A stretch of DNA of 64,000 nucleotides from a virus. The notes under the pieces are model-generated. The model did no database searches and was not told where the DNA came from. It saw only the letters and a list, made by a program, of their open reading frames with translations. The DNA is taken from positions 160,001-224,000 of the IMG/VR virus record IMGVR_UViG_3300045988_170943, one strand, 5' to 3'. Of this stretch, positions 119 through 59,167 are shown one piece after another (the first letter of the stretch is position 1; each line of letters starts with the position of its first letter). A program made the translations under genes and the position numbers.

Positions 119-2956
119 CTACTTCTCGGAGTTCTCACCGTCACTGCTGGTGCCACCGTCTGAATCAAGGTCGTCGCCATCCTTGGGCCCGTCAACCTGA
201 GATGAGGCGCTATCCGTGTCGGTCTCGGTGTCATCAGCGGGTGTGATTTCACCGACCTCGCCTGCATTGTCAGGTGTGTTGTTATCCTCGTGGGCTCCAT
301 CGTTCGGGGTGTCACTGTCGCCGCTGATAGCGTCACTCAGGGCCGCCTGTACCTCACTACCTGGGTTTACCGGCACGTAGTCGCGCTTCTCCACCTGGAT
401 TGATAGGGAGTCCTCGCCGTCCACGTGGTCAATGATCACAAGGTCGTCGTCGTCGATGGTGCCGTTGAGGAGTAGGACGGAAGCCTTCGTCGTGCCGGTC
501 TCCTTCACCAGCCCAATCACTGGGCGGGCTCCGCGCTCAGGGTCGTATCCTTCAGTGGACAGCCACTTCTTCGCATTGTTCGTGATCTCGAACTTGATGC
601 GGCGGCGAGCCATACGTTTCGTGAACTTGCTCACCTCCTTGTCAATGATCCGGCCCAGGCCCTCCTCGGTGAGAGTGTGGAAGATCACCTGGTTGTCCAG
701 GCGGTTCAGGAACTCTGGGCGGAAGTGGCCACGGATCGCGTCATTGACGGCCTGAGCCTTCTCCTCCTCACTCAGGGTCGGGTCAATCATGGCCCTGGAG
801 CCGAGGTTAGACGTCAGGATAATCACTGTGTTGCGGAAGTCAACCCGTTTCCCCTTGCTGTCTGTCAGGTGACCCTCATCAAGGACCTGGAGGAGAACAT
901 CGAACACCTCCGCGTTAGCCTTCTCCACCTCGTCAAACAGGATCACCGAGTAGGGGCGCTTACGGACAGCCTCAGTGAGGACACCACCCTCATCGTAGCC
1001 CACGTATCCGGGAGGTGCGCCCATGAGTTTCGCAACCGAGTGCTTCTCGGAGAACTCGGACATGTCAATGCGCACCATAGCCTGCTCATCATCGAACAGG
1101 AACTCCGCGAGCGCCTTCGCTGCCTCTGTCTTACCGGTACCGGACGGGCCAGAGAACAGGAAAGACCCGGTGGGGCGGTTCGGGTCCGCCAACCCGGCAC
1201 GCGACACACGGATAGCGTCAGCGATACTGGAAATAGCCTCATCCTGACCGAACAGGCGACCGCCCATGCGCTCCTCAATATGGAGCAGTTTCTCAGCCTC
1301 CTCCTCAAGGACCTTACCTGCCTTGATGCCAGTCTTCGACTCTACGGCACGGGCGATCTCGTTACGGCCTACAGACTCAGCGATCAGGGCGTCATCCAGG
1401 GACTTGACAACCTTGGCGATCTCATTCTCCAGGGACCTGGCCTCAGTCGCGGCTTTCTCGGCGTCCTCAATGTTACCGGCGTCCGCCTCCTCCTGGTAGC
1501 GCGCCTGGGCGTCAGCGAGACGACCCCTGGTTTCATCCAGGTGCTTCTTCGTCTCCTGCTCGCTGGCCCACCTGGCCGTCAGGTCAGCCAGTTCCTCCTC
1601 AGCCTCCACGATCTTGGTGCGCACCTCATCTAGGGCGATGCGAGCCTCAATGGACTCCTGACCCTTCAGGGAGTCGGCGTCGTGGCGGAGGTTTTCAAGG
1701 CCCTGCTCCAGGAAGTAGATACGGTCCGGCTTCGAGTCGATCTCCTGACGCATCTTCGCGGCAGCCGAGTCCAGCAGGTCAATGGCCTTGTCCGGCAGCC
1801 GATCCGCCGGAACATACCGGACAGACATCTCGATAGCGGCAGCCAGGGCGTCGTCACTGATTTGCACCCGATGAAAATCCTGATACCCTGGGACGAGACC
1901 ACGCAGAATCATGAGCGTGTCACGGTCTGACGGCTCCTCCACATCTACCTGCTGAAGGTAGCGGGACACGGACTCCTTCTCGATGTGGATACGGTATTTG
2001 TCGTTCGTGGTCTCACCAATGATGAGGATGTCTTCACGGACGAGGAAACCTCGAAGCGTGTCGGCGGCAGCGGACCCAGAGTTCAGGGCGTGGATACCCT
2101 CGATAGCGAGAACAATTTCACCGTTAGAGTCCTTCACCTCGTTCAGGAGGCCAACGAAGTTCTTCTCAAACTCTCCCTGAGAGGCAGAACTGGAACGCAT
2201 TGACGTCAGGTCCAGCAGCAGGATACGCCTACCGGGCAGGAACTCGACACTGCCATCATATGCTCTCTGGGCGAGAGAGAAGATGACGGAGGTCTTACCA
2301 ACGCCAGGGTCCCCAACTAGGACAGGAGTGTTCTTGCTGCGGCGGGACAGTAGTTGGACAACCTCACGGATCTCACGGTCACGGCCAATGACGACAGGAA
2401 GATCACCCTTGCTGGCCTTCTCGGTCAGATCAATGCAGAACCGGCCAGTCAGGCCACCATCCAGAGGCTTACTGATCCTGCTGCTGGCGGCTGCGGATGA
2501 CGTGGAAACGGCGGCAGAAGTTGGGGTAGGGGAGGGCGTCGCGCTTACGATGCGGATCCCAGCGCGCTGAAACTCCCCCAGGTTGTCACACAAGGACTTA
2601 ACGAGGTCTAGGACAGCGATCACGCCCGCACGGTCGTCGTCAGCGGCGTACTTTTTTGCGTCCCGGACGATCTTAAGCACCTCGGGGCCGACAGTCACGT
2701 TCACGTTCACAGGTGTGGGGGCAACTTGCTTCCCAGACTCGTTAGTGACGACACGCCGGTTTGCCTCCTCAATGAGGGCGTCAATGTGGGCCATGTCCAC
2801 GTGCGCCTCAATCAGGGCGGCCAGAACGACTGGTTGGTTTTTCATTGTCGCCACAAGGTGGTGAGGCAGGATCTCACGGTACCCTTGCTTGCGGGCTAGA
2901 TCCATGGACTCCTGTAGCCATTTCTCGCCCCCACTGGACGCTACACTCTTAGCCAC
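119..2956 (-). CDS. Clp/Hsp100 double-AAA+ ATPase (ClpB-like, with a long coiled-coil M-domain); divergent, with a long acidic C-terminal tail
   Basis: 945 aa. Clp_N-like N-terminus. D1 Walker A GDPGVGKT. Long coiled-coil middle domain. D2 Walker A GPSGTGKTE and Walker B VILFDEVEKA. D1 Walker B reads LLLDLTS (the Glu is replaced). About 150 aa D/E/S/T/G-rich C-terminal extension. Confidence 0.85.
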   Translation of the reverse strand: MAKSVASSGGEKWLQESMDLARKQGYREILPHHLVATMKNQPVVLAALIEAHVDMAHIDALIEEANRRVVTNESGKQVAPTPVNVNVTVGPEVLKIVRDAKKYAADDDRAGVIAVLDLVKSLCDNLGEFQRAGIRIVSATPSPTPTSAAVSTSSAAASSRISKPLDGGLTGRFCIDLTEKASKGDLPVVIGRDREIREVVQLLSRRSKNTPVLVGDPGVGKTSVIFSLAQRAYDGSVEFLPGRRILLLDLTSMRSSSASQGEFEKNFVGLLNEVKDSNGEIVLAIEGIHALNSGSAAADTLRGFLVREDILIIGETTNDKYRIHIEKESVSRYLQQVDVEEPSDRDTLMILRGLVPGYQDFHRVQISDDALAAAIEMSVRYVPADRLPDKAIDLLDSAAAKMRQEIDSKPDRIYFLEQGLENLRHDADSLKGQESIEARIALDEVRTKIVEAEEELADLTARWASEQETKKHLDETRGRLADAQARYQEEADAGNIEDAEKAATEARSLENEIAKVVKSLDDALIAESVGRNEIARAVESKTGIKAGKVLEEEAEKLLHIEERMGGRLFGQDEAISSIADAIRVSRAGLADPNRPTGSFLFSGPSGTGKTEAAKALAEFLFDDEQAMVRIDMSEFSEKHSVAKLMGAPPGYVGYDEGGVLTEAVRKRPYSVILFDEVEKANAEVFDVLLQVLDEGHLTDSKGKRVDFRNTVIILTSNLGSRAMIDPTLSEEEKAQAVNDAIRGHFRPEFLNRLDNQVIFHTLTEEGLGRIIDKEVSKFTKRMARRRIKFEITNNAKKWLSTEGYDPERGARPVIGLVKETGTTKASVLLLNGTIDDDDLVIIDHVDGEDSLSIQVEKRDYVPVNPGSEVQAALSDAISGDSDTPNDGAHEDNNTPDNAGEVGEITPADDTETDTDSASSQVDGPKDGDDLDSDGGTSSDGENSEK

Positions 2957-5585: not shown

Positions 5586-6317
5586 GTGACGGCAGACACA
5601 AAAGACGAAACCTCCTTTTGGGAAGGGTTATGTATGACAGACTTCAGTGACCTCACCTTCGAGGACAATGCGGACCAGCGCGGGCCGGTAATGATCGTCC
5701 TCGACTGCTCCGACTCCATGACGGCCATCCAGGACGGTATGACACAGAGCCCTCTCCAGGAACTCAACGCAGCCCTAGATGTCCTTATCGCCGAGATCGA
5801 CCGGGACAAGTTGTCACGCCGACGCGCAGACATATCCTTCCTGCCCTATGGGACCGAGCCAGCAGCCCCCACACCTTTCGCTACCGTGGACTCACGACAG
5901 ATCATTGTTCCTGAACTCTACGGGATGGGGCTCACCTACACGGCGAAAGCCCTAGAAGCCGCTATCGACCACCTGGAGACCCGCAAACAGGAGTACCGGA
6001 ACAACGGGGTCCCCTACAACCGGCCACTACTGTTCCTCCTCAGTGACGGTCTCGCCATGGACGACCTGACCTCCGTGTCGCAGCGGATTAAGGACTTGGA
6101 GGCGCAGAAGAAACTCTCGTTCTTCCCGGTTGGGGTCACGGACGCCGACATGGATCAGTTGTCCAGCATCGGGACACGCAACGCCCTAAAGGTGTCGGAC
6201 GGGAAACTTGCAGAACTGTTCCAGTGGCTCTCCGCCTCCGTGGCCTCCGTGTCGGCGTCAGCCCCAGGTGACGACAAGGTGAAACTTCCTGCACCAACCG
6301 ACTGGGCAGAGTTCTAA
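5586..6317 (+). CDS. von Willebrand factor A (vWA) domain protein, TerY-like
   Basis: MIDAS motif in VMIVLDCSDSM (DxSxS), followed by the typical vWA beta-alpha pattern. The start may instead be the internal Met MTDFSDL at about 5634. Confidence 0.7.
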   Translation: MTADTKDETSFWEGLCMTDFSDLTFEDNADQRGPVMIVLDCSDSMTAIQDGMTQSPLQELNAALDVLIAEIDRDKLSRRRADISFLPYGTEPAAPTPFATVDSRQIIVPELYGMGLTYTAKALEAAIDHLETRKQEYRNNGVPYNRPLLFLLSDGLAMDDLTSVSQRIKDLEAQKKLSFFPVGVTDADMDQLSSIGTRNALKVSDGKLAELFQWLSASVASVSASAPGDDKVKLPAPTDWAEF

Positions 6318-6331
6318 ACCACCCAGTTCTT

Positions 6332-6385
6332 GAGCGCCCCTCCGGTCACCCTGCTACCACGGCCGGAGGGGCGCTCCATGTCTTT
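6332..6385 (+). terminator. intrinsic-terminator-like hairpin after the vWA gene
   Basis: Perfect 14-bp inverted repeat GAGCGCCCCTCCGG (6332..6345) / CCGGAGGGGCGCTC (6363..6376), then a T-rich CATGTCTTTTCCC. Confidence 0.55.
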
Positions 6386-6422
6386 TCCCACCCTCCGCAA
6401 AACCACGTGACACCAACAGGTG

Positions 6423-6451
6423 TTGACACTACCGGTTCTCTCCTGTACGAT
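6423..6451 (+). promoter_or_regulatory. sigma-70/sigmaA-type promoter (-35 TTGACA, 17-bp spacer, -10 TACGAT)
   Basis: TTGACA at 6423..6428, a 17-nt spacer, TACGAT at 6446..6451. It lies about 50 nt upstream of the small ORF at 6501 and its RBS AGGAAGG. Confidence 0.5.
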
Positions 6452-6500
6452 CCACGCCAGTTCAACTTATAGTCAACCACCAAAAGGAAGGTGAATGAGA

Positions 6501-6776
6501 ATGCCTAACGCAACACAGAACGCACTCACCGTCAGTCGTGAGGCTCACGCACTCGCCGTGCTCGGCATTGACACCAGCATCCCCGCATATGGGACTGGAT
6601 ACCCGACAATCCCTCGTGACCGCGTGTGGGACGTTGCCGCAGATCGTGACCACTTGGTTGTGACGCTCCTGGAGCGTGACACAAAGCGGGCCGTACGTAA
6701 GACGAGCCGCCACAAGTACAATGTTGACGGCCACGAGTCTGTGATCGAGATGATGCGAGAAATCGCCGAAAAGTAG
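6501..6776 (+). CDS. small hypothetical protein (91 aa) embedded in the vWA/PP2C/kinase cluster
   Basis: ATG at 6501 with RBS AGGAAGG (6485..6491) at 9-nt spacing. The near-consensus promoter lies upstream. A hairpin (6810..6860) follows. Confidence 0.4.
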   Translation: MPNATQNALTVSREAHALAVLGIDTSIPAYGTGYPTIPRDRVWDVAADRDHLVVTLLERDTKRAVRKTSRHKYNVDGHESVIEMMREIAEK

Positions 6777-7023
6777 GATCACTGTCGTTTGCAGTGTCAA
6801 CTTATTGCTCACTGGGCCCGCCCCACGCCTGAAACAATGGTGACTGAGGCGGGTCCAGTGCATACTCTGCCGCCCCCAAGCAACCCCGTAAATCCGTATG
6901 CCACTGCTGTTCAAACCATGTTTCCCTTGCAGTGATCTGTCGCATCCGCACGTTAGTGCCAGCGATATTTCACCCCATTAAAGCACCATTACAAGCACTA
7001 AAACGTTAACTGATCGGGGAACC

Positions 7024-7707
7024 ATGGACATTTACGCTGGCACCATCACCGGCCCCTACCATGAGCAACGTGGAGAAACCAGCCAGGACGCATACTGGTT
7101 CCTCCAAGAGAGAGGGTTCACAGTACTCGCAGTGGCCGATGGGGCTGGTAGCCTCCCCCGATCAGGGGTGGGTGCGGAGATCGCCGTGAACACTGCCGTC
7201 AATGAGACCATGGATGACCTGCTGGGTGGGGAGTCCTTTGAGGAGGCGGTCAGGAGTGGCATCGAGTGTGCCCAGACCTCTTTGACAATCCGGGACGACG
7301 CCCACGAGATCGGGTGCACACTCGCCTTGGCCGCCTACCATGAAGACGGCGGATGGGCGGCGGGAACTATCGGTGACTCCTTCATCGTTGTCACCGCTGA
7401 TCGGGACACGCACACTCTGATCACCTCCCCCAAACCAAGCGAGTTCAACAACATCACTCACCTACTCACCACCAGCAACGCGCAACCCACCATTGAGCAT
7501 GGGGAGGACCGACCACTCATGATCTCCGTCGCCACTGACGGGCTGGCCGGAGCGTCAACAAAATCTGGGGCACCCTCTGGGGCGTTCTGGGCCAAGGTCA
7601 GCGACTATGCCACCTCAGGTGAAGGACTCGATGTTGACGCGCTCCTAGAGTTCATGAACGCTGAGGGCCGGATCGAAGACGACACCACTCTCATCATTGG
7701 CACCTGA
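7024..7707 (+). CDS. PP2C-family Ser/Thr protein phosphatase
   Basis: PP2C-like motifs: VLAVADGAGS (compare aVaDGmGG), GDSFIVV (GDSR-like) and VATDGL. 227 aa. Confidence 0.7.
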   Translation: MDIYAGTITGPYHEQRGETSQDAYWFLQERGFTVLAVADGAGSLPRSGVGAEIAVNTAVNETMDDLLGGESFEEAVRSGIECAQTSLTIRDDAHEIGCTLALAAYHEDGGWAAGTIGDSFIVVTADRDTHTLITSPKPSEFNNITHLLTTSNAQPTIEHGEDRPLMISVATDGLAGASTKSGAPSGAFWAKVSDYATSGEGLDVDALLEFMNAEGRIEDDTTLIIGT

Positions 7708-7866
7708 CCCCCACCACGCCAGCACAAACACCCCGAGCACATAGCAGTCAAGCCAGCCCCACGCAAGACCATCCGTCAACGCCACACCGTCTCTCGCAGT
7801 GACTTGATTTGTTGTGGTTTCTGTGGTTCCTGATATTGTGTTCTGAGTTGTTGAGGAGGTTATGGT

Positions 7867-8466
7867 TTGTCTGGTCGGTTGTTGAAGATTGGTGAGGTTG
7901 CGCGTCTGCTGGGGGTGTCTACGTCTAGGGTGCGTGATTATGCTCGTGAGGGTCGTCTGGAGTTCTCGTTGACTCCGGGCGGGCAGCGGGTGTTCGACCG
8001 GGCTGTGGTGGATCAATTCATGGGTGCTTCCCCGGACGGTGGGTGTGTGTTCTATGTGCGCTCGTCGAAGGGCAACAAGGGTGCGATGGATACTCAGGTG
8101 CGGGAACTCACTGAAGTGTTTGGTGAGCCGTCTCGGGTATACCGTGATGCTGGGAGTGGCCTGAATGAGAACCGGAAGGGACTGTGGCGACTCATCAGTG
8201 ACGCTGAGCGCGGTGGTTTCTCCAAGGTGTGTGTAACTCACGAGGACCGCCTGTCCAGGTTCGGGGTCGCCTTCATCAGGAGAATCCTGAAGGATCGAGG
8301 CGTTGAGGTGGCCATCCTGCACGATGACAAGCGGTCTGACCGTGAGGAGATACTGTTGGACTTCATGGCGATCCTGGCTTCGTTCTCTGGGCGCTACTAC
8401 CGGCTCCGGTCCAGGCGTGAGCAGAACGACCTACTGGATGAGGCCAGGAGTGCCCTGAATGGGTAA
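7867..8466 (+). CDS. tnpA: IS607-type transposase TnpA (MerR-like HTH + serine recombinase catalytic domain)
   Basis: N-terminal MerR-type HTH (IGEVARLLGVSTSRVRDYAREG). Serine-recombinase core VFYVRSSKGNKGAMDTQ. 199 aa. Overlaps the tnpB start by 8 nt. Confidence 0.8.
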   Translation: MSGRLLKIGEVARLLGVSTSRVRDYAREGRLEFSLTPGGQRVFDRAVVDQFMGASPDGGCVFYVRSSKGNKGAMDTQVRELTEVFGEPSRVYRDAGSGLNENRKGLWRLISDAERGGFSKVCVTHEDRLSRFGVAFIRRILKDRGVEVAILHDDKRSDREEILLDFMAILASFSGRYYRLRSRREQNDLLDEARSALNG

Positions 8467-9901
8467 GGTCAGAACGTCTGTCGCCTTGCGGCACTTCGGC
8501 ACACCAGGCCATGATCATGATGCGGTGCATGTTGACCTGGTGTCGATGGTGCGTATGGTGCAGGCCGCCGCTACCGAGTTCACCATGTCACCGGCTTATG
8601 GTGACCTGATCAGGCGTATCCTGTCCGGCGACGTGAAGGTCGGGACACGGAAGAACCACAGCGGTAGGGGAAACGTCCCGGACGTGTTCTTCCCATGCAA
8701 CCGGTACAACATGAACGAGATGCTTCGCGCCCTGGTGATGGGGCACATCGAGACACATGCAGTAAGTACTGGACTGTTCCAGGTCATGGGCGACAACCCG
8801 ACCGAACGTGACCCCAAGACAGTGGCGTCCCTGTTCCGCGACGTCTACCCCAAAACCGCGTTGAGGGTCCCGTGGCGCACGGCCAGGTCCCACGTTCACC
8901 GGTACCATGACAAGGGCCAGAGGACACCACAGGACCCCAGAGTCCCAGCGAAGATCGACCTGTCTGCTTGCGACGGACACTACCTGAAACTAGAGGCCAA
9001 CAGACGTGACGTAACCTTGTGGTTTCGGAGGCTCCAGACAGCCAAAAACGTCACCCTGACGTTCCGCCTGCCCAGAGGGCAGAGGTTTCAGGGCAACAAG
9101 GTGTGCAAACCCACCATCCAGGTTGCGGGTGAGGAACTCATCTTCAGGTTCACCATCGAGAAGACCGTCGCAGACCGCGCCCCCTCCAAAGTGATGGGAG
9201 TGGATCTCGGTAAGGTCGAGCCCTACACCGCCACCATCATCAACGAGCAGGAGAACCACCACTCCGCACCATTTCAAGCATCCAGAAAGATCAAGCACCT
9301 CAACGGCCGCTACGACGACCTGATCCGACGCGCCCAACACCTTGAGGTCAAGGCGTCCCGCTGCCAGGCCAGCGGACACCGCCACAAAGCATCCGTACTC
9401 ACCAGCCACGCCCAGAACATCCGGGCGGCCGCCAGACGAGTCAAGGGCGAAACTACCCACCAGATCGCACATGAGATCGCCGAGACAGCATCCAAGCGCG
9501 ACACCGCCGTCGCCCTGGAGGACCTGTCCTGGCTGAACCACATGGGCGGACGCTGGAACCACTCAGAGACCCAGGAAGCCATCACCAACGCCTGCCGACG
9601 CCGAGGCATCCCCGTCAGAAAAGTCAACGCGCGCGACACCTCCAACACCTGCACCCGGTGCGGCAGCACAGTCACCCACAACCGGCGGAACAACACCTGC
9701 ACCACATGCAGATTCACCATCAACCGTGACGTCGCAGCATCCAGAGAGATCGCCTTACGCGCCACAAGAAACAAGCACAGGGAGCCGCTTCGCCAACGGA
9801 AGCGGCAGAGCATGACGGTCACGCACCAGTCAGCCCCGGCCACCACCATGAGTGGTACCGGCCCACAGGCAACCATGCCTGAAACGTCAGGTCAGGGGTG
9901 A
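8459..9901 (+). CDS. tnpB: TnpB (IS605/IS607 OrfB family RuvC-like, RNA-guided nuclease family)
   Basis: 480 aa. RuvC-like motifs (GVDLGKVEPYTATII). C-terminal zinc finger CTRCGSTVTHNRRNNTCTTC followed by INRDVAASREIALRA. Confidence 0.85.
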   Translation: MGKVRTSVALRHFGTPGHDHDAVHVDLVSMVRMVQAAATEFTMSPAYGDLIRRILSGDVKVGTRKNHSGRGNVPDVFFPCNRYNMNEMLRALVMGHIETHAVSTGLFQVMGDNPTERDPKTVASLFRDVYPKTALRVPWRTARSHVHRYHDKGQRTPQDPRVPAKIDLSACDGHYLKLEANRRDVTLWFRRLQTAKNVTLTFRLPRGQRFQGNKVCKPTIQVAGEELIFRFTIEKTVADRAPSKVMGVDLGKVEPYTATIINEQENHHSAPFQASRKIKHLNGRYDDLIRRAQHLEVKASRCQASGHRHKASVLTSHAQNIRAAARRVKGETTHQIAHEIAETASKRDTAVALEDLSWLNHMGGRWNHSETQEAITNACRRRGIPVRKVNARDTSNTCTRCGSTVTHNRRNNTCTTCRFTINRDVAASREIALRATRNKHREPLRQRKRQSMTVTHQSAPATTMSGTGPQATMPETSGQG

Positions 9902-9970
9902 GGCCCACAGAGAACACAGATTTTCTAGAAAACCCAACCCAACTGACGAGCGTAGAGAGAATACACACTG

Positions 9971-11917
9971 ATGAGAACCTGCCTTGTGAAAAGCCCGCAC
10001 GGGTCAGGACGAGTGACCCTCGGTGCCGAACTCGGTAGAGGCGGCGAAGGGTCAGTGTACACTGTCACTAGCGTGCAGGCACCAACCCTCGGCGCCCCCG
10101 ATAGCCTAGTCGCAAAGGTGTACCACACCCCAGGTGAAGGCAACCGGAGAGCCAAAATCCATGCCATGGTGTCCCGGCAGCCAGACGCCACGTCCCTCGC
10201 CTGGCCTGTCGCCGCCCTGTATGATGGGGTGGAGTTTATCGGCTACCTGATGCCGAAACTTGACGCTAGCCGGTTCCGTGACTGGTCCGACTTGGCGAAC
10301 GCAAAAACTCGCCGCGAGAGTGCACCGGACTTCGACTTCAAGTACGCGCTGCACGCATGCCGGAACCTTGCCGCAGCCATCGACAGTGCCCACAAGGTTG
10401 GGGCGGTCCTGGGGGACATCAACGAGTCCAACGACATGGTGGGTGCTGACGCCAGCATCCTTGTTGTTGACACAGACAGCGCCCAGATCACAGCCTCAAA
10501 CGGGCGAGTGTTCCCCTGCCTGGTCGGCAAGCCCGAGTATACGGCCCCAGAGATCTCGAAGGGGTCGTTCAAGGACAACCCTCGCACGGTCAGCACGGAT
10601 GTTTTCGCGTATGCGGTGATGGTGTTCCAGATGCTCACTGGTGGGGCACACCCTAGTGACGGGAAGTATACGGGTGGTGGGGACGCACCGGACACAAGGC
10701 ACAGGATCCTTCAGGGCGTGTACCCGGCCCTGGTGGACACGGCAGGCTTTCAGGCGGTGCAACGGATCCCCAGTGAGTGCGTCCCGAGCGTCATCATGGG
10801 AACAATCACTAGAGCAATGACTGGGAGACCTGACGCCCGGCCGAGCCTGTACGATTTTGTGAAAGACTACGATGATGTGCTGGCCGCGTTGAGACAGTGT
10901 CCACGTATCGGGTCGCACTGGTGGGATGGGCGGGACCATGCGGTGTGCCCCTGGTGTCTTCGCCGTGACGCTGGCTTGAATGACCCGTGGGGGCCTCCGG
11001 TGCAAAGGGCTCAGGCTGCGGTCCCGTCTAGTGGTGCGATCAGCCAGTCAACGCTTCCTCCGGTGGGGTTCAACTCGGCTAGCAGTGGGGGCTCACCGGC
11101 CGTCACGAGGAGAAGACTCACTCCGGCAGGCTCCAGCACCCCTCCAGGGCGTTCACAGCCTCCTGGTGGGACTGGTGCGCATCCTGGCTACCGTCCTCCC
11201 ACCCAGTACGCTCAGGCACCTGTGTCGGCGCCTCAGGCGGCCTCTAGCAGTGCTGGAGCCCCGCCGACTGGAGGCTATCACTCTCAGTCTTCTCTGCCGT
11301 TCACGAGTGGGTCTAGCGGCTCCACTGGGTCGTCCAGCAGTGTCCCGTCGAAGGTGAAAGGGAAGACTGTCCTGACGTACTCGGACGGTTCCGCTGCGGT
11401 GCGTCCACCTATCGCCACCCTGCTGAGGTCGAATCCTGGTGTCGCCTGGTACTGCATCAAGAACGAAACACCTGGTTTCGCTCAGGCTTGGTGGGATGTG
11501 AAGCGTCCCCTGGTGCTGCTGTGGGCGTCCGCCCTTGGTCTCCTGGTAGGGCTTCTTCTGTCGGGGACGTGGCTGATCGTTCTGCCGCAACTAGCACCGT
11601 ACCTTCAGTCACAGTACCCGTCGATGGACTGGATCTCTATCCTGGTTGGTTTGGGTGGCCTGGCGGCTGCTGCGACCGCATCCGTAGCGGTGCTCTGTTT
11701 GTTCCTGTCGTCAATGTGGGACTTCTTGAAGGCTAGGCGGCAGAACCGTGACCTCAATGTGTTCGAGCGTGACAAGTGGTGGGTGACCGTCCTGAGGTAC
11801 CTGCCGATCCCTGTGGTGTATGGGCCTCTGCTGGTGCTGGTGCTGGTGGCGTGCCTGATCGGTTTGGCGGTGAGTGCAGTGATCGGGATTCTGCGTATGA
11901 TCTTGGAGTCCGACTAA
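9971..11917 (+). CDS. Ser/Thr protein kinase-like protein with zinc ribbon, low-complexity S/P/G linker and 4 C-terminal TM helices
   Basis: Gly loop LGRGGEGSVYTV. Lysine in VAKVYH. Atypical catalytic loop LGDINESN. DTDS in the DFG position. APE motif in EYTAPEI. Cys pair CPWC after the kinase domain. Four hydrophobic helices in the last about 150 aa. Confidence 0.7.
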   Translation: MRTCLVKSPHGSGRVTLGAELGRGGEGSVYTVTSVQAPTLGAPDSLVAKVYHTPGEGNRRAKIHAMVSRQPDATSLAWPVAALYDGVEFIGYLMPKLDASRFRDWSDLANAKTRRESAPDFDFKYALHACRNLAAAIDSAHKVGAVLGDINESNDMVGADASILVVDTDSAQITASNGRVFPCLVGKPEYTAPEISKGSFKDNPRTVSTDVFAYAVMVFQMLTGGAHPSDGKYTGGGDAPDTRHRILQGVYPALVDTAGFQAVQRIPSECVPSVIMGTITRAMTGRPDARPSLYDFVKDYDDVLAALRQCPRIGSHWWDGRDHAVCPWCLRRDAGLNDPWGPPVQRAQAAVPSSGAISQSTLPPVGFNSASSGGSPAVTRRRLTPAGSSTPPGRSQPPGGTGAHPGYRPPTQYAQAPVSAPQAASSSAGAPPTGGYHSQSSLPFTSGSSGSTGSSSSVPSKVKGKTVLTYSDGSAAVRPPIATLLRSNPGVAWYCIKNETPGFAQAWWDVKRPLVLLWASALGLLVGLLLSGTWLIVLPQLAPYLQSQYPSMDWISILVGLGGLAAAATASVAVLCLFLSSMWDFLKARRQNRDLNVFERDKWWVTVLRYLPIPVVYGPLLVLVLVACLIGLAVSAVIGILRMILESD

Positions 11918-12138
11918 CCAGCAGCCTTACCCCTCTCTGGTTCACTGTTTGGGGGAGCCCGCTTTTGCGTATCCTATGAACCGCCTTTTTCTTCGCTCGC
12001 ACTGGACGTGTTCACTGCTCTCTTGTTTTTGGTGTGACCTGGGTCCTGTTGCCTGATGGTGCTGTATCCTGCTATGATCCGAGATAGTAAGCGGTGCCGC
12101 AACCATGTGGCCAGAAAGAAGGAAGGAGGGCGTACTCA

Positions 12139-12765
12139 GTGACGGATCCTGTACTCACGCACGCCCCATCGTTCAGTGACCTACTCAACGATGGTGTTTC
12201 CAACCTGGTTGTGCTGGACTTTGATGGCGTGATCAACCCTTTCGCTTCCCGGTTCAACATCAATCAGAAGCGGTTTTACCGGCCGAACCATTTAGTGCAC
12301 GTCAAGAGCCCCTGGAGCGGCAACGAGCAGTACCCGGTTAAATGGTCCGATGACCTCATGTCTGACCTTAGTGGCATCATGGGTGACCCTGGGACGGTGC
12401 TGATCTGGTTGACGGCCTGGAAACAGCATGTTGCCAAGCCAGTCAGTCTCATGGGATTGGAGACGCACCACCCCCAGTACTGGCTAGACTTCGACAAGGG
12501 TGTCTCCTACCGTCCGAACCAGGGCGCTAAACGTGACGCCATGAGAGACTACCTGGGTGGCGGCACCCTTCCGGAGGGGGTACGGGTCGCGTGGGCTGAC
12601 GATGAGGTTCTGACTGGGGCCCACTCTGCTGACGTCACTTCCATGTTCGGCCCCGGCCTGTTACCTGTCCGGTCGAACCCGATGAATGGCCTGTCCAAGT
12701 GGGATGTGACCCAGATCAGTAAGCACCTGGGTTGGGCCGCCAGCAAGAGGGAGGACTCCCTGTGA
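12139..12765 (+). CDS. HAD-superfamily hydrolase-like protein
   Basis: GTG start 9 nt after RBS GAAGGAAGGAGGG. Motif I LVVLDFDGVINPF (DxDGV). LTAW in the motif II position. WADDE acidic motif IV. Confidence 0.4.
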   Translation: MTDPVLTHAPSFSDLLNDGVSNLVVLDFDGVINPFASRFNINQKRFYRPNHLVHVKSPWSGNEQYPVKWSDDLMSDLSGIMGDPGTVLIWLTAWKQHVAKPVSLMGLETHHPQYWLDFDKGVSYRPNQGAKRDAMRDYLGGGTLPEGVRVAWADDEVLTGAHSADVTSMFGPGLLPVRSNPMNGLSKWDVTQISKHLGWAASKREDSL

Positions 12766-14031: not shown

Positions 14032-14304
14032 CCCCACTCACAGGAAGGCCCTGTCTATTCCGCTCTCGTGCCAGCGTATTACGCTTTCAGTGCTCCCAGG
14101 TCGGGATCCTCTAGTTCTCAACCAGCGTGACATCAGAACGGTGTTTGTCACACTGGTTGATTCGCGCTCGGTTTCTATGTTAGGTTGGGCGCACGGAGGG
14201 CACCCCTCTTGAACCTGGGGGCACGAGCCTGTGCCTCCTTCGTCTCTACACTGGGCCAATATTCCAGTCGCACAATCTTCCGGCCAAACACAAGGCGGTA
14301 CCGC

Positions 14305-15561
14305 ATGTTCACTATTCTTCTATGGCTGTTGGGCGTAGCCGCCTTCATTGTCGTACTCCTCGCCAGTATTGGTCTGCACGAGGCGGGGCACATGGTTGCC
14401 GCCAGATGGTGTGGCCTGTATGTCCCTAAGTTCTTCGTTGGGTTCGGCCGCACCATCTGGTCGTTCAAACGGGGCGGCACCGAGTATGGACTGAAAGCCA
14501 TCCCTCTGGGTGGGTTTGTCAGTATCGAGGACCCGACCCGGCCGGAGGGTGAAGACGACAGGATGCTGCTGTCTCACGTACACCCCCTGAAACGGATCCT
14601 TGTGTTCATTGCCGGTCCGCTGGTGAACCTTGCGCTCGCGGTCGTGATCCTCATGGCCGGGCTCGTTGGCCAGCCGTACCGAGCCACCACGACCACGGTG
14701 CAGAACGTGACCGTATGTGAGCACACAGACGCGGAGCACACTCAACTGGTTGCCCCATGTGGAGCATACGCTGCTGGAATCTTCAAGGGTGACACGATCA
14801 CCTCAGTCAACGGGCGTCGAGTATCCACGCTGGCACAGGTTAGGCAGGCTCTCCAGGAAGTGCCGGACGGCCAGAAGGTGCCCGTGACGGTACACCGCGT
14901 GTTCCCCAATGGGGGCGGTGAGCGTGACTTCAACAAGATGGCTCGCGTCGAGGGAGGCACTATCGGGTTGACCGTGAAGACAGAGACCCGTCGGCTCAGT
15001 GTCGCAGAGTCAGCGAAGGTGCTGGGTGCGGTGAGTGTGCAACAGATTCAGGCCATCCCAAGCCTTGTGGGGCAGATCCCGGCGGTATGGCGCAACATCA
15101 TCGGGCAGGGCGATGGTAAGCCCGCGGCCACCTCCATCATCGCGGTAGGGAAGACGTATGGGGATGTGGCCGCGAATACTGGCCCTACTGCGTCATCTGG
15201 GTTCAGTGAGGTTGGTCGCGTTCGTACCCTTGTGTTGTTTAGTGGCCTGGTGAACCTGAGCCTGTTCGTCATGAATGCCTTGTTGCCGATGCTTCCCTTG
15301 GACTCGGGTCGTATCCTGATTGCGTTGGTTGACTTGGTGCGCATGGGGTGGGCTAGGTTCACCAGGGTGGTGTCGCGTGGTATGCGTGCGATGCGTGGGC
15401 GCCTTGATGCTGGCAGTGATGGGGGTGGCGGCTGGGTGTACCGGCCGTTGAGCAGTAAGGTCGTGAACACTCTGACGGTGGTGACATCTGTGCCCTTGTT
15501 CCTGTTTTTCATCATGCTTGTGGTGTCGGATGTGATGTCCACGATCCGGGGAAGCATCTAA
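14305..15561 (+). CDS. rseP: site-2 protease (M50 zinc metalloprotease, RseP/Rip1-like) with PDZ domain
   Basis: HEAGHMVAARWCG (HExxH) at the N-terminus between TM helices. PDZ-like GDTITSVNGRRVSTLAQV. C-terminal TM segments. The start is chosen at MFTILLWLLG. Confidence 0.8.
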   Translation: MFTILLWLLGVAAFIVVLLASIGLHEAGHMVAARWCGLYVPKFFVGFGRTIWSFKRGGTEYGLKAIPLGGFVSIEDPTRPEGEDDRMLLSHVHPLKRILVFIAGPLVNLALAVVILMAGLVGQPYRATTTTVQNVTVCEHTDAEHTQLVAPCGAYAAGIFKGDTITSVNGRRVSTLAQVRQALQEVPDGQKVPVTVHRVFPNGGGERDFNKMARVEGGTIGLTVKTETRRLSVAESAKVLGAVSVQQIQAIPSLVGQIPAVWRNIIGQGDGKPAATSIIAVGKTYGDVAANTGPTASSGFSEVGRVRTLVLFSGLVNLSLFVMNALLPMLPLDSGRILIALVDLVRMGWARFTRVVSRGMRAMRGRLDAGSDGGGGWVYRPLSSKVVNTLTVVTSVPLFLFFIMLVVSDVMSTIRGSI

Positions 15562-27882: not shown

Positions 27883-30800
27883 GTGTTTACAATGAGTAAG
27901 GTTACGAAGCGGGTTGTTGGCATGGAGATCATCTCTCCAGGCAGTCCCCCTGACATTGACTCCGACTTCTCTACAGTGAGCAAGGACAGGGCATATGATT
28001 ATGTGTCTGACCTGTACGGCCATGACAACGTGTCCCATATTGTGACGTTCAATACTCTGGGCGCTAAGAGCGCGTTCAAGCGCATGTGCACGATCTACAG
28101 TGTCCCGTTTTCTCAAGCCAACCGTATCGCCGGAATGATGCCTGAGGGGGTAGAGGGCCACAAGATCACATTCAATGACATCTATGATGAGAAGTCAGAC
28201 TACTATGAGGATGCTGCCGACTTCCGTGCAGCCACCTCCGGGTCTGAGTGGCTGCCAATCATCACTGGGGCCAGGTCTATTGCGAACAAGGTGCAGGGGA
28301 CGGGAGTACATGCCTGTGGCGTGATCATCTCGAACAAGCCGTTGACTGACACGATCCCGCTGATGGTGGACAGCAAGGACGGGAAAGTCACTACCCAGTG
28401 GTCGTACCAGGAGTGTGAGGCGCTAGGCCTGATCAAGATGGACTTCCTGGGGCTGGACACGGTTGACCTGATCCAGCACACGGTCCAGTTCATTCAGAGG
28501 TCCGGTAAGGAGCCCCCGAACATGACTGAGATCATTCACGGAAAGATGGATGATGAGGACACGTACCGCCTGTTCCAACACGGCGAGACCATTGGTGTGT
28601 TCCAGTTCGGGTCAGAGATGGTGCGAGGCCTGCTGAAGCACATGAAACCAACCGAGTTCAACGACCTGGCAGCATGTACCGCTGTCGCCCGGCCGGGACC
28701 GATGGGCATGAACTCGCACACCATGTATGCGGACCGTAAGAATAACCTGGCTCCGGTTGAGCCGATCCACCCCGACTTCGTTGGGTCCCCTCTGGAGGAG
28801 ATCCTGGGCGGCACCTATGGGCTGTGCGTACCGGCGGGAACCTTGATTGAGGACTCCACAACTGGGAGGCGCGTACCTATTGAGTCGTTCCGGGAGGGAC
28901 ACTGCACGCCCTCCTGGAACCCGGACACTGGGAGTGTAGTGCACTCGCCAGTGTTCAAGGTCATCCACACTGGTATGCAGGATGTTGTCAAAGTGCGCAC
29001 ATGGGACGGCTGGAAGACAACCGTTGGTGTGGATCATGAGATGTTGACGCCTTCCGGGTTTGTGAAGGCTGGTGAACTCACTACCCATGACAGTGTTGGC
29101 GTCATCTCCCAGGGTCGCCTTAGGTGGGACCGTGTCACCGCCTTGGAGGCTGCTGGCGTCGTGGACTGTTACGACCTGGATGTGGACGACACGCACACTT
29201 ACCTTGTGGACGGTTTCGTCACCCACAACTGCGTCTACCAGGAGCAGATCATGCAGTTAGCGCAGCGGATCGCGGGCATGAGCCTCCAGGAGGGCGACAA
29301 ACTTCGCAAAGCCATGGGTAAGAAGAAGGCCGACGTTATGGCGAAGATGAAGCCGCGATTCATCCAGGGCGGAGTTGACAACGGGTACTCCGAGGAGGCC
29401 ATGAACAAACTCTGGGACATCCTGGAGCCATTCGCCAAGTACGCCTTCAATAAGTGCTTACATGGGAATACAGAAGTTCTCATCAGTCAGAATACTAAGA
29501 CGACAGTTAAGGATCTTTATCGCAGATTCAAGAATGGCGAGAAGAACATTAAGATTCTCTCCATGTTTGAGAGTGGTGACCTGCACTTTCACAACATCTC
29601 TGAGATTGTTCAGACCGGGGAAAAACCACTGTGGACAGTTGAAACTGAATCAGGCAAGACGATAAGTATCACTGAGAATCATCGCATGCTGACCACTGAT
29701 GGCTACCAAACCATCAAAAACGGTGGCATTCGGGTTGGCTCGGAACTGGTTAATGACAAGTACTGGAACAACAGGTTCAGAACAGTTCAAAGAAGACCAG
29801 CCCCTAGAAGAGGCTGGTCACATAAATCCAGTTCTTACCGTAAAGTCAAGAACATTTCTTTCAGTAGTGATGTTGACAAGGCCCTTGTTGAGAACTATCT
29901 GATTGTTCGCGGTGCCATATTTGAGACCAACAAGATAATCTCATCTCCTAACGAAGAGATCCTTGGTGCTGCTGACTTCTTTGTCAATGGCACCTACTTT
30001 GAGATGGATGGTAAAGGCCTCGGTCGCCAGTACCTCATTGACAACAAGTACGGTACCGTCCCGTTCGTCTACTTGACTCCTGAAAACTATAGAGACGAGA
30101 TTGATGCTGCCCTTATGGGTCATCATAAGAGCAGTGGTGACAAGGTGGTGTCCATCACTCCTCCAGAGGTTCTTGAGGACGGATCAGTTCTGCGTGAGAT
30201 GACGTATGACATTACAATGTCTGATGATGGTCCAGCGAACTTCATCGCCAATGGTCTAGTGTCCCACAACTCTCACAGTGTCGCCTATGCGATGAATGCC
30301 TACCAGGCTGCCTATCTGAAGACCCACTACCCGGTTGAGTTCATGTCCGCGCTGGTAGCACAGACCATCAGTGACCGGGACAAGACCCTCAACAATCTGC
30401 GTGAGGCCAGGCGTATGGGCCTGGCTATAGGGACGGTGGACATCAACCTGTCTGAGGTGCGAATGGCCCCAGACTACTCGGGTGAGTCGCCGTTCGAGAT
30501 CTTGTACGGCATCTCTGGTGTGAAGTCCGTCAGTGAGGATACCGCCCGTCTCATTGTTGCGGAGCGGGAGAGGGGCGGCAGGTTCACATCGGTCTACGAC
30601 GCTGCGACCCGGTGTGTGGCCGCTGGGGTGAACAACAAGACCGTGCTGGTGAATCTTGCCTTAGCGGGCGCGTTTGACGGCTTGGAACCGAACCGGAGGC
30701 GTGTTGTTGAGGCTATTCCCGCTCTGTTGAGTGTGGGTCGGGACGAGTCCTCCAAGGGCATGTCGCTGCTCGCTGCCTTGGATGTTCCTGGTGAGGACAT

Positions 30801-31905
30801 TTTCACAATGCCGGATGTGGAGGATTACTCGTACACGGACCGCCTGGGCATGGAGGCTGACATGGTGGGCCTGTACCTGTCTGGCCACCCGATGGATCAC
30901 GCCGACCTGTCCCCGTTCGGTGCCACCCCTTTGAAGGCTGTGGCGTCAGCGGCCAGCGGGTTCGGTTCTGGGACTGCAAGAGTGGTGGCGGCCGTGTCTG
31001 GCATCGAGATGAGGACAACTGGGCGGGGGAAGATGTGCACCCTGCATCTTGATGACGGTGACGGGTTCCTGTCTGTACGCCTGTCCCCTAAGGTGATTTC
31101 AGGGGTGGAGAAGTTCGAGGCAATGGAGGACATTAAGACCCGGTTCTGTAAGGGTGAGATGGAGGTGCCTAAGTCTACGGTCGGCAAAGCGTTGAAAGAT
31201 GTGCCTGTGGTGGAGACGATCAGGCAGAACATGGTTTATGTGATGGATGTCACCTACCGTAAGTTGTTCGGTGGCGGACAAGTGAGTGTGTGGGTTGATA
31301 GCATCCGGCCGGTGACGTTCACCCGTGACGGTGGCTTGCCGGTCAGGGTACGTATCAACGTTGACCGGCTTGGTGTGGAGCGGGCGAGGAAGGCGTATGT
31401 TGCGATTCCGCGCATTCTGGCGGAGAAAGCCCCCGGCAGTACCCCTATTATGATCGCCCACTACCGGCCGGGTGATGGTGTGGCAACATCCGAGGAGGAC
31501 AGGTGCCGGTATGCTCTGGAGGTCATGAGGCGCGAGAAGGTGACTGATGGTAGCGCTGACGACACTCACAAGAGCAAGAAGAAGAGCGGCCGCAACGGTG
31601 CGGGGGGCGGTGGCGGTAAAACGCCCTCACTGCTCGGTGACGACAACGGTCATGATGAAAGCGAGACCGAGCCCCGCGTGAAGGATCGGGTTGGTAGGCA
31701 GTGGCCCACAGAGGTTCCGGCTGAGTTCATCAAGGATAGTGAGGCGAGCGTGGAGGACATGAGATCGTTCGCGGACGCCTTGGAGTACAGGGACACTGGC
31801 CTCACCGTCGCCCCGAGTACGGATGCCAGCAGGATCCTGGAGAAGTATCTGGGGCACGAGAACTATGACTTCGGCATGTATGTGCCGGTAGTTACCTACT
31901 CCTGA
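27883..31905 (+). CDS. dnaE: DNA polymerase III alpha (DnaE-type C-family polymerase) lacking the N-terminal PHP domain and interrupted by two inteins
   Basis: The ORF starts (GTG 27883 or ATG 27892) right after in-frame stops at 27850 and 27868. The N-terminus aligns to the palm region of E. coli DnaE at about residue 380 (PDIDSDFS). Conserved HACGVIIS, KMDFLGL, ARPGP, YQEQIMQLAQ, RKAMGKKK and FNK...SHSVAYA motifs. OB-fold and a G-rich C-terminal tail. Confidence 0.85.
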   Translation: MFTMSKVTKRVVGMEIISPGSPPDIDSDFSTVSKDRAYDYVSDLYGHDNVSHIVTFNTLGAKSAFKRMCTIYSVPFSQANRIAGMMPEGVEGHKITFNDIYDEKSDYYEDAADFRAATSGSEWLPIITGARSIANKVQGTGVHACGVIISNKPLTDTIPLMVDSKDGKVTTQWSYQECEALGLIKMDFLGLDTVDLIQHTVQFIQRSGKEPPNMTEIIHGKMDDEDTYRLFQHGETIGVFQFGSEMVRGLLKHMKPTEFNDLAACTAVARPGPMGMNSHTMYADRKNNLAPVEPIHPDFVGSPLEEILGGTYGLCVPAGTLIEDSTTGRRVPIESFREGHCTPSWNPDTGSVVHSPVFKVIHTGMQDVVKVRTWDGWKTTVGVDHEMLTPSGFVKAGELTTHDSVGVISQGRLRWDRVTALEAAGVVDCYDLDVDDTHTYLVDGFVTHNCVYQEQIMQLAQRIAGMSLQEGDKLRKAMGKKKADVMAKMKPRFIQGGVDNGYSEEAMNKLWDILEPFAKYAFNKCLHGNTEVLISQNTKTTVKDLYRRFKNGEKNIKILSMFESGDLHFHNISEIVQTGEKPLWTVETESGKTISITENHRMLTTDGYQTIKNGGIRVGSELVNDKYWNNRFRTVQRRPAPRRGWSHKSSSYRKVKNISFSSDVDKALVENYLIVRGAIFETNKIISSPNEEILGAADFFVNGTYFEMDGKGLGRQYLIDNKYGTVPFVYLTPENYRDEIDAALMGHHKSSGDKVVSITPPEVLEDGSVLREMTYDITMSDDGPANFIANGLVSHNSHSVAYAMNAYQAAYLKTHYPVEFMSALVAQTISDRDKTLNNLREARRMGLAIGTVDINLSEVRMAPDYSGESPFEILYGISGVKSVSEDTARLIVAERERGGRFTSVYDAATRCVAAGVNNKTVLVNLALAGAFDGLEPNRRRVVEAIPALLSVGRDESSKGMSLLAALDVPGEDIFTMPDVEDYSYTDRLGMEADMVGLYLSGHPMDHADLSPFGATPLKAVASAASGFGSGTARVVAAVSGIEMRTTGRGKMCTLHLDDGDGFLSVRLSPKVISGVEKFEAMEDIKTRFCKGEMEVPKSTVGKALKDVPVVETIRQNMVYVMDVTYRKLFGGGQVSVWVDSIRPVTFTRDGGLPVRVRINVDRLGVERARKAYVAIPRILAEKAPGSTPIMIAHYRPGDGVATSEEDRCRYALEVMRREKVTDGSADDTHKSKKKSGRNGAGGGGGKTPSLLGDDNGHDESETEPRVKDRVGRQWPTEVPAEFIKDSEASVEDMRSFADALEYRDTGLTVAPSTDASRILEKYLGHENYDFGMYVPVVTYS
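28825..29229 (+). other. intein 1 (135-aa mini-intein) within dnaE
   Basis: Inserted between extein ...GGTYGL and CVYQEQIMQ. Begins CVPAGTLIED and ends FVTHN, followed by Cys+1. In frame. No endonuclease domain. Confidence 0.7.
29455..30270 (+). other. intein 2 (272 aa) within dnaE at FNK/SHS, with a low-GC central insert
   Basis: Inserted between extein ...AKYAFNK and SHSVAYAMNAYQ. Begins CLHGNTEVL and ends LVSHN, followed by Ser+1. 29455..29900 is conspicuously AT-rich relative to the gene. Confidence 0.65.
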
Positions 31906-59126: not shown

Positions 59127-59167
59127 CACACCCCAACCCATAGGATCTGAGAAAAAGAGGTGCAGTT

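Follow-up and report, generated by a model that had tools for sequence, protein, structure and literature searches.

The viral DNA stretch examined here, 64,000 nt in length (positions 160,001-224,000 of the IMG/VR record IMGVR_UViG_3300045988_170943; referred to in its entirety as the window), carries at positions 5586-11917 a locus encoding a von Willebrand factor A (vWA) protein, a PP2C-type phosphatase and a Ser/Thr kinase with a zinc ribbon. We propose that this triad is very probably a phage-borne copy of the Ser/Thr phospho-switch typified by the YegL-PphC-YegI proteins of Escherichia coli and by the TerY-P systems. This high confidence pertains to its identity alone; the fuller reading, which combines the molecular identity with a mechanism and a conflict-type role, is one that we consider probable with a good deal less assurance. 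As a module it belongs to a known kind, and what is new is its phage context; its kinase has a distinct tail, and two secondary insertions separate its genes. The span holds six co-oriented open reading frames (ORFs), all on the plus strand, which code in turn for the vWA protein, a 91-aa protein, the PP2C, the TnpA and TnpB of an IS607-family element, and the 648-aa kinase. The original prediction correctly listed the three triad genes and the small ORF but overlooked the two transposon genes between the PP2C and the kinase.

Relationship of the triad to YegL-PphC-YegI

The three domain calls on which the original prediction was built are borne out by profile searches, which recovered Pfam VWA (E-value 3.9e-14), PP2C_2 (8.7e-31) and Pkinase (1.2e-8; 35.1 bits vs. 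a cutoff of 31.7) in the respective proteins. Further, a tblastn search of plasmid records with the vWA protein led to the E. coli yegL-pphC(yegK)-yegI operon, all three products of which are homologous to those of the window and whose genes follow the same vWA>PP2C>kinase order, the setting being a chromosome there and a huge phage here. The vWA gene (5634..6317) lies in an ORF that at its longest opens with GTG 5586; its start is most likely ATG 5634, since public gene calls hold exactly the resulting 227-aa protein, to which JGI gives the name 'uncharacterized protein YegL'. This protein is 35% identical to E. coli YegL (E 2e-36), matches phrog_28389 (6.6e-36), and is itself matched in tblastn by TerY1, TerY2 and TerY3 of the IncHI2 ter locus at E-values from 1e-6 to 1.6e-10. 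It retains the residues of the metal-ion-dependent adhesion site (MIDAS), DxSxS...T...D, the first part of which can be read in the sequence as DCSDS and aligns with YegL; unlike TerY, it is devoid of the TerY-C extension. The phosphatase (7024..7707; 227 aa) is PphC/YegK-like, with 27% identity to E. coli PphC (E 2e-11), and retains in its ADGAG motif the metal-binding Asp that is essential in PphC.

The kinase (9971..11917) aligns with YegI over 334 aa with 32% identity (E 9e-40), the alignment taking in the GDVNQNS catalytic loop, the DSDS segment and the CPWC zinc ribbon of the latter. The corresponding motifs of the window protein, ...VLGDINESN...VVDTDSAQI...CPWC..., were read as such in the original prediction together with the Ser/Pro/Gly-rich linker, and they are indeed present. 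The accompanying verdict that this kinase is unusual does not survive comparison: a G-D-x-N loop in place of HRDxK, a D-(S/T)-D-S segment in place of DFG, and a CPWC zinc ribbon are all shared with YegI, the one local difference being the residue at position +5 of the catalytic loop, which is Asn in the window (GDINESN) and Ser in YegI. In an alignment of 25 homologs with 34-72% identity, the Gly-rich loop, K49, D149, N151, E152, S153, N154, D167, D169 and S170 are invariant; so are E189, T191, A192 and E194 of the APE segment, with P188 nearly so, and the zinc ligands C310, H316, C326 and C329. Given this invariance, the non-canonical loop and the DTD motif are conserved features of a subfamily rather than marks of decay. 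The biochemistry of the E. coli proteins lends these motifs a functional meaning. YegI is an active, Mn2+-preferring Ser/Thr kinase and a two-pass inner-membrane protein, in which replacement of DSD by DFG or DSG abolishes activity and Ser162 is needed (Rajagopalan and Dworkin, bioRxiv 10.1101/819920). Dephosphorylation of YegI is carried out by PphC, a PP2C that depends on Mn (bioRxiv 10.1101/303594). The equivalent of YegI Ser162 in the window kinase is S170.

Codon differences between the window and a related locus, L100, are mainly synonymous or in third positions in the triad genes, with 37 synonymous and 8 non-synonymous changes in the vWA gene, 30 and 7 in the PP2C gene, and 65 and 32 in the kinase gene.

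Architecture of the kinase and its membrane module

The AlphaFold2 (AF2) model of the kinase (mean predicted local distance difference test score, pLDDT, 81.5) displays a bilobed kinase domain with a pLDDT of ~90, and Foldseek returned Mycobacterium tuberculosis PknB (5u94) as its best match (E 1.5e-10, TM 0.70). This catalytic domain occupies residues 1-306 (9971..10888) and is followed by the zinc-ribbon-like module (10889..10969; C310, H316, C326-x2-C329), which is modeled as a beta-hairpin and then a helix. The Ser/Pro/Gly-rich linker, residues 347-456 (11009..11338), has a pLDDT below 50 and is gappy and poorly conserved in the alignment, as befits a disordered segment. Beyond it lie a small ordered juxtamembrane domain (residues 459-499) and a set of hydrophobic helices (residues 512-647), which together span 11345..11911 and would constitute the membrane anchor. 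Hydropathy blocks at 512-543, 554-586 and 605-647 coincide with AF2 helices at 517-548, 555-591 and 612-647 (pLDDT 81-97), joined only by short loops. The hydrophobic C-terminal helices of the original prediction are thus present, but where it counted four, both hydropathy and the model yield three long ones and not clearly four; a fourth is still conceivable because the last hydropathy block extends over 43 aa. Its expectation of a membrane-anchored kinase with soluble vWA and phosphatase partners agrees with our predictions.

YegI is anchored in the membrane without an extracytoplasmic sensor domain, an arrangement with which the short loops between the hydrophobic helices of the window kinase would be compatible. 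The two differ in the number and position of their helices: YegI has two central transmembrane helices (around residues 400-435) followed by a cytoplasmic tail of ~200 aa, whereas the window protein has a disordered linker of 110 aa, the juxtamembrane domain and three hydrophobic helices at its extreme C-terminus. Bacterial relatives of the kinase likewise show at least one transmembrane segment at about residue 400-450, then other domains. A search with the C-terminal module (residues 440-648) recovered 65 representatives among 1.84 billion proteins; among the matches listed, it is mostly found at the C-terminus of proteins of 576-654 aa, and the shorter ones look like fragments. On this sequence evidence the module is private to a metagenomic, phage-linked clade.

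Comparison with TerY-P systems

TerY-P was delineated as a combination in which a TerY-like vWA protein is joined by a PP2C and by a Ser/Thr kinase whose C-terminus carries a zinc ribbon (Anantharaman, Iyer and Aravind 2012, summarized in PMC11090510 and PMC4978471). The broad features of this system all recur in the window, namely a vWA domain with a MIDAS, a neighboring PP2C, a fusion of kinase and zinc ribbon, and co-orientation across genomes, with the cassette being interrupted by the small ORF and the IS607 element. In this respect the locus resembles the TerY3-PP2C-kinase triad of the IncHI2 ter locus, in which vWA, PP2C and zinc-ribbon-bearing kinase genes are likewise adjacent and co-oriented. 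At the sequence level, the ter-locus PP2C gives a weak match to that of the window (3e-5), and tblastn at E<=1 detects no resemblance between the two kinases.

Linkage to Ter or McrBC-type genes is frequent in TerY-P, though not obligatory. In the window, tblastn at E<=1 detected no TerD, TerC, TerB, TerZ or TerA, so that the absence of TerD and TerC noted in the original prediction stands, and the neighbors of the triad include neither Ter genes nor McrBC/CoCoNuT partners. Apart from the vWA, the sole Ter-associated family of the window is represented by a TelA-like gene (35395..36870, minus strand) at a distance of 23 kb, which the original prediction did not mention; it has a Pfam TelA match of 5.8e-8 (32.6 bits vs. 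a cutoff of 30) and a weak match to phrog_5890 'tellurite resistance'.

The function of TerY-P modules had been described in the original prediction as essentially untested, which is outdated because such triads confer anti-phage defense in two studies, and both YegI and PphC have been characterized biochemically. Variants in which an OB fold replaces the zinc ribbon provide anti-phage defense on their own (Gao 2020, cited in PMC11090510 and PMC7699616), and a Pseudomonas aeruginosa TerY-P protects against Autographiviridae (T7-like phages), with most cells surviving infection (Costa et al., bioRxiv 10.1101/2022.08.12.503731). The window triad shares with these stand-alone systems the three-domain logic and the status of an independent cassette, but its genes reside in a phage and not in the host, and its kinase ends in a zinc ribbon and membrane module where the validated defense kinase ends in an OB fold. 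On the phage side, Ter-type components of jumbo phages have been proposed to function in superinfection exclusion (PMC7824862), and in one comparative review of jumbo phages TerY, PP2C and 'protein kinase' each have 0 occurrences.

In searches with PADLOC models, two control triads, YegLKI and the IncHI2 ter locus, were without a TerY-P-named match. Since even canonical ter-locus proteins find no such match, automated defense finders probably miss most triads of the TerY-P type. On the E. coli IncHI2 plasmid NZ_OY754383.1 (13998..18200), the kinase of the triad is annotated as 'lipopolysaccharide kinase InaA family protein'.

Phage context and phyletic distribution

Near-identical DNA (93.5% identity) occurs on two IMG/VR viral contigs, which are 247,899 and 394,300 bp long, and numerous contigs of 414-424 kb encode exactly the same vWA and kinase proteins. 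Most probably, the window is part of a huge phage of ~420 kb. Besides the triad, it codes for a ClpB-like chaperone, an M50/PDZ protease, NrdI and a D12 methylase; many of its ORFs are without any family match, and no tRNA, rRNA or Rfam match was found in it. Scoring of 8000 candidates yielded 603 relatives of the kinase at E<=0.001. The best 120 of these 603 are mostly 570-702 aa in length and none has NCBI among its sources; the 90% cluster to which the window kinase itself belongs does include one member with an NCBI source. Three relatives reside on contigs of 673-765 kb, each again with vWA, PP2C and kinase genes, and with an M50 protease and NrdI nearby in two of them and an rIIB gene in one. 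Ten further IMG/VR contigs of 83-361 kb carry the kinase, and the triad as such recurs in related contigs of 0.08-0.76 Mb. Megablast of the locus against plasmids and phages returned nothing, and in tblastn against phages each query retrieved only two contigs, both weak matches of human-faecal origin. One of these contigs, MT836238.1, has vWA and kinase genes ~0.9 kb apart. A search of IMG/VR anchored on the M50 protease returned only 3 loci, all already known.

The triad is also widespread in bacterial genomes, where at least 548 loci were confirmed (548 of 600 candidate stretches). A set of 80 bacterial loci, mostly from cyanobacteria, with Chthonomonadaceae and other phyla in addition, matches only the kinase domain and zinc ribbon (residues about 15-350) at 31-38% identity. 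We counted gene orders with iterated profiles in the 64 bacterial loci with sufficient upstream DNA and in 13 huge-contig loci: vWA>PP2C>kinase on one strand was observed in 45 of the former and 11 of the latter. The suggestion that these genes form a TerY-P-type triad is supported by this recurrent order, which clearly goes against the outcome that the original prediction had named as refuting it, namely that homologs of the three genes never occur together.

Two secondary insertions in the operon

The vWA and PP2C genes are separated by a self-contained unit centered on the 91-aa ORF (6501..6776), for which the original prediction had specified a near-consensus promoter and bracketing hairpins, and all of these elements are present. 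The vWA stop codon is followed by a hairpin (6332..6376) with a perfect stem of 14 bp (-36.6 kcal/mol; z -5.7 vs. shuffles) and a UCUUUU tract, which is likely a terminator. Next comes a sigma-70-like promoter, TTGACA-17-TACGAT (6423..6451), that would serve the small ORF; it matches the consensus at 10 of 12 positions and is the best of 6 sites in the region, shuffles of which give 1.8+/-1.6 sites. A Shine-Dalgarno sequence, GGAAGGTG, lies upstream of the ORF, and two stem-loops (6777..6860; -40.9 kcal/mol, z -3.9) lie 3' of it. In L100 the hairpin after the vWA gene, the -35 hexamer and the Shine-Dalgarno sequence are kept, and the -10 hexamer reads TACAAT, which is closer to consensus. The ORF is intact there with 14 synonymous vs. 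11 non-synonymous codon changes, and its start is placed at 6501 because the upstream ATG at 6495 reads ACG in L100.

A homolog with 32% identity occupies the same position in L088, a locus whose kinase is 57% identical to that of the window. Only 8 database relatives of the small ORF were found and other phage lineages have different genes at the vWA-PP2C junction, from which we conclude that it is lineage-restricted rather than part of the triad. In locus L006 the vWA gene directly abuts the PP2C gene, and in bacteria the two often overlap. The protein has no match in Pfam, PHROG, PADLOC or NCBIfam and shows no similarity to E. coli YegJ; its AF2 model (pLDDT 53.8) is unusable. Judged by its sequence signals and conservation, the 91-aa ORF is a real, moron-like transcription unit without assigned function, and not a conserved component of the triad; as a gene it stands, but not as a general part of the module.

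A block from 6336 to at least 7099 (at least 764 nt) matches the IMG/VR contig L002 with 100% identity across the small ORF and the intergenic regions on either side of it, whereas the flanking vWA and PP2C genes differ from L002 by about 4-5%. An RNA gene was considered as the cause of this identity and rejected, given that L100 differs throughout the block with substitutions of the coding type. As L100 differs all along it, the block probably stems from recent recombination between strains that circulate together.

The second interruption is a 2163-bp IS607-family element (7791..9953, or equally 7788..9950, the junctions at 7788/7791 and 9950/9953 being ambiguous by a shared CGT). Its tnpA (7867..8466) matches NCBIfam transpos_IS607 with 120 bits vs. 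a cutoff of 110, along with Pfam Resolvase and MerR HTH/HTH_17, and overlaps tnpB (8459..9901), which has a Pfam Cas12f1-like TNB domain. In keeping with the IS607 family, the element thus combines a MerR-HTH and resolvase TnpA with an overlapping tnpB, and it shows no target duplication, a short shared core (CGT) and a precise empty site in relatives; it departs from the expected pairing in that its TnpB falls below the NCBIfam guided_TnpB cutoff (79.6 vs. 100 bits). L002, L003, L100 and L101 have the IS-free site, with a PP2C-kinase spacer of 123-124 nt, and the exact match of the flanks to this empty site indicates a strain-specific and recent insertion. PP2C and kinase are closely linked in most other loci. 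The right end of the element lies 17-20 nt before the kinase ATG; 3' of the element, the kinase ORF and a Shine-Dalgarno-like GAGAGAA tract are intact, and between that end and the ATG there is neither a promoter-like site for the kinase nor a significant RNA fold (z -0.5). The insertion probably uncouples expression of the kinase from that of the phosphatase. The same junction is occupied in E. coli K-12 by the lineage-specific yegJ (DUF2314), between pphC and yegI (NC_000913.3 2149039..2153128).

Near the right end of the IS607 element there is a perfect 12-bp palindrome, TTTTCTAGAAAA, at 9921-9932. The DNA directly flanking this end, which by analogy with other TnpB elements might be the source of the omega-RNA guide, overlaps the ribosome-binding site of the kinase. 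A second, solo tnpB (41041..42570, plus strand) has a Cas12f1-like TNB domain (2.2e-16) and is 37% identical to the IS607 tnpB; tblastn found no tnpA adjoining it.

Neighboring genes

Downstream of the triad, an M50 site-2 protease with a PDZ domain is encoded at 14185/14305..15561 (plus strand). L002, L006, L007 and L089 each have a homolog of it 0.1-4 kb past the kinase gene, in many cases with NrdI close by; the membrane kinase may be connected in function with proteolysis inside the membrane. On the other side, a ClpB-like double-AAA+ chaperone (119..2956, minus strand; TIGR03346 2e-222, below the equivalog cutoff), which also matches PADLOC PDC-M37B and DolB, is kept upstream of the triad in L002 and L100. 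An RNA-repair-type set comprises HAD_SAK_2 (12094..12765), PNKP (AAA_33 + HAD_PNKP; 54344..55546) and a 2H-SAK phosphoesterase (55631..56785). DNA polymerase III alpha (27883..31905, plus strand) contains an intein (Intein_splicing, residues 534-796) and a second, weak Hint-type match, PT-HINT, at residues 332-446, which is below cutoff. Finally, NAPRTase and NAD synthetase (phrog_36784, 7.9e-101) adjoin each other at 57822..60679 (plus strand), and a similar NAD salvage pair is reported for gut jumbo phages (PMC11662467).

Proposed mechanism and competing explanations

We envisage the following mechanism for the module. The topology predicted above would have the kinase face the cytoplasm, held at the host inner membrane via the zinc ribbon, the 110-aa linker and the three hydrophobic helices. 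By analogy with YegI, it would be Mn2+/Mg2+-dependent and activated by autophosphorylation in the D-T-D-S segment, whose Ser, the counterpart of YegI Ser162, does not vary within the clade. The PP2C would reset the kinase as PphC does YegI, and the MIDAS-bearing vWA protein, going by its architecture and by precedents, would connect the switch with its target as an adaptor, sensor or substrate; the archaeal vWA protein ArnB, which is phosphorylated, is one such precedent for an adaptor or substrate. The ~420-kb phage would deploy the module during infection, most likely to guard the infected cell against competing phages (superinfection exclusion), in the manner of the bacterial stand-alone TerY-P systems. 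The operon, ancestrally compact, has been broken twice, first by the older promoter-ORF-hairpin unit between the vWA and PP2C genes and later by the IS607 element before the kinase. As to the role, exclusion of competing phages is slightly favored, because anti-phage defense is the only phenotype of any such triad and because of the proposal made for the Ter-type components of jumbo phages; takeover of the host is nearly as likely.

Several observations weigh against this account. The assignment to a phage is indirect, since the 64-kb window contains no phage structural hallmark gene. Neither does the AF2 model of the kinase contain an OB fold, unlike the validated defense variant. Among PADLOC models, the vWA protein has no match even at E<=10, the PP2C matches only PDLC02222 (2e-4), and the kinase matches only generic kinase models (PD-T4-6, mad6 and MkoA) rather than TerY-P-named ones; with the control triads failing likewise, this negative is uninformative. 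The bacterial triads are flanked by housekeeping genes among which no partner recurs, and the closest of them lie outside defense islands; E. coli YegLKI has no known physiological role or substrates, with no expression condition having been found for it (bioRxiv 10.1101/819920). The triad is kept, in several contigs next to the M50 protease or NrdI, across phages with kinases only 33-40% identical, which fits a function in the life cycle as well as one in defense. In addition, the IS607 element may have shut off the kinase of this strain.

The foremost competing explanation is that the module serves host takeover, with the membrane-tethered kinase phosphorylating envelope, division or RNA-metabolism proteins of the host in support of the long cycle of a huge phage, and the PP2C and vWA proteins setting timing and targeting. 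The phage T7 kinase Gp0.7, which acts on host proteins, is a precedent for such a role. The persistence of the triad in huge contigs that have diverged deeply (their kinases are 33-57% identical), several of them with the M50/PDZ protease and NrdI, is consistent with it, as is the position of the nearest bacterial triads outside defense islands; further, the clade-private C-terminal membrane module suggests long adaptation within phages. Set against these are the sole demonstrated TerY-P phenotype, which is anti-phage defense, the lack of a known substrate, and the fact that the triad is not established as core to the clade, the M50-anchored search having recovered just the 3 loci. As a complete account of the locus, we regard takeover as possible, if less likely than not. 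A related and slightly more doubtful proposal is that a clade of huge phages (contigs of 0.2-0.76 Mb) keeps the triad as a vertically inherited part of its infection program, with its own membrane module on the kinase.

Two other explanations fare worse. The three ORFs might be relics of a decaying module, dismantled by the IS607 element and the earlier insertion of the small ORF; the placement of the former 17-20 nt upstream of the kinase ATG, the lack of a promoter-like site in that interval and the strong hairpin that stands between the vWA gene and those downstream could be read in this way. However, the three ORFs are of full length with all catalytic and metal-binding residues intact, their differences from L100 are mostly synonymous or third-position, and the vWA/small-ORF/PP2C order is old and stable, being common to L088 with its 57% identical kinase. 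Moreover, the GAGAGAA tract survives, the IS607 insertion is recent and read-through from tnpB is possible, all of which makes decay quite improbable. Even less credible is a stand-alone island for defense or stress sensing that would serve the bacterium itself from a mobile region of its chromosome. Homologous stand-alone triads do occur in bacteria in the numbers given above, an IS element is present and TerD/TerC are absent from the window, but near-identical DNA on IMG/VR contigs of 248-394 kb and exact proteins on many contigs of 414-424 kb speak against a chromosomal origin. So do the phage-like contents (PNKP and the RNA-repair set, NAD salvage, the solo tnpB, the intein-bearing PolIII alpha and the many ORFs without a match), the lack of tRNA and rRNA genes, and the absence of NCBI sources among the best 120 kinase relatives, the one such source in the kinase's own 90% cluster notwithstanding. 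The independent module in a mobile region that had been suggested in the original prediction thus holds in so far as the triad stands apart from TerD/TerC, but the surrounding DNA looks like a huge-phage genome.

Implications

The preferred reading, that of a phage-borne YegL-PphC-YegI/TerY-P switch, has practical corollaries. A triad carried by a phage is presumably expressed in infection, which would offer a natural context in which the switch is turned on, and one in which substrates, be they of the host or of rival phages, should be findable by phosphoproteomics. The natural IS607-interrupted and IS-free alleles, in turn, provide a ready-made comparison. Were the triad indeed retained by a huge-phage clade, it would be a membrane signaling device under phage control, used for envelope remodeling or the exclusion of rivals, rather than a borrowed defense gene, and it might act together with the neighboring M50/PDZ site-2 protease; phages would then be a major reservoir of the module and a tractable setting for the study of its substrates. 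More generally, the locus would add a Ser/Thr phospho-switch to the devices that huge phages deploy in conflict or host takeover.

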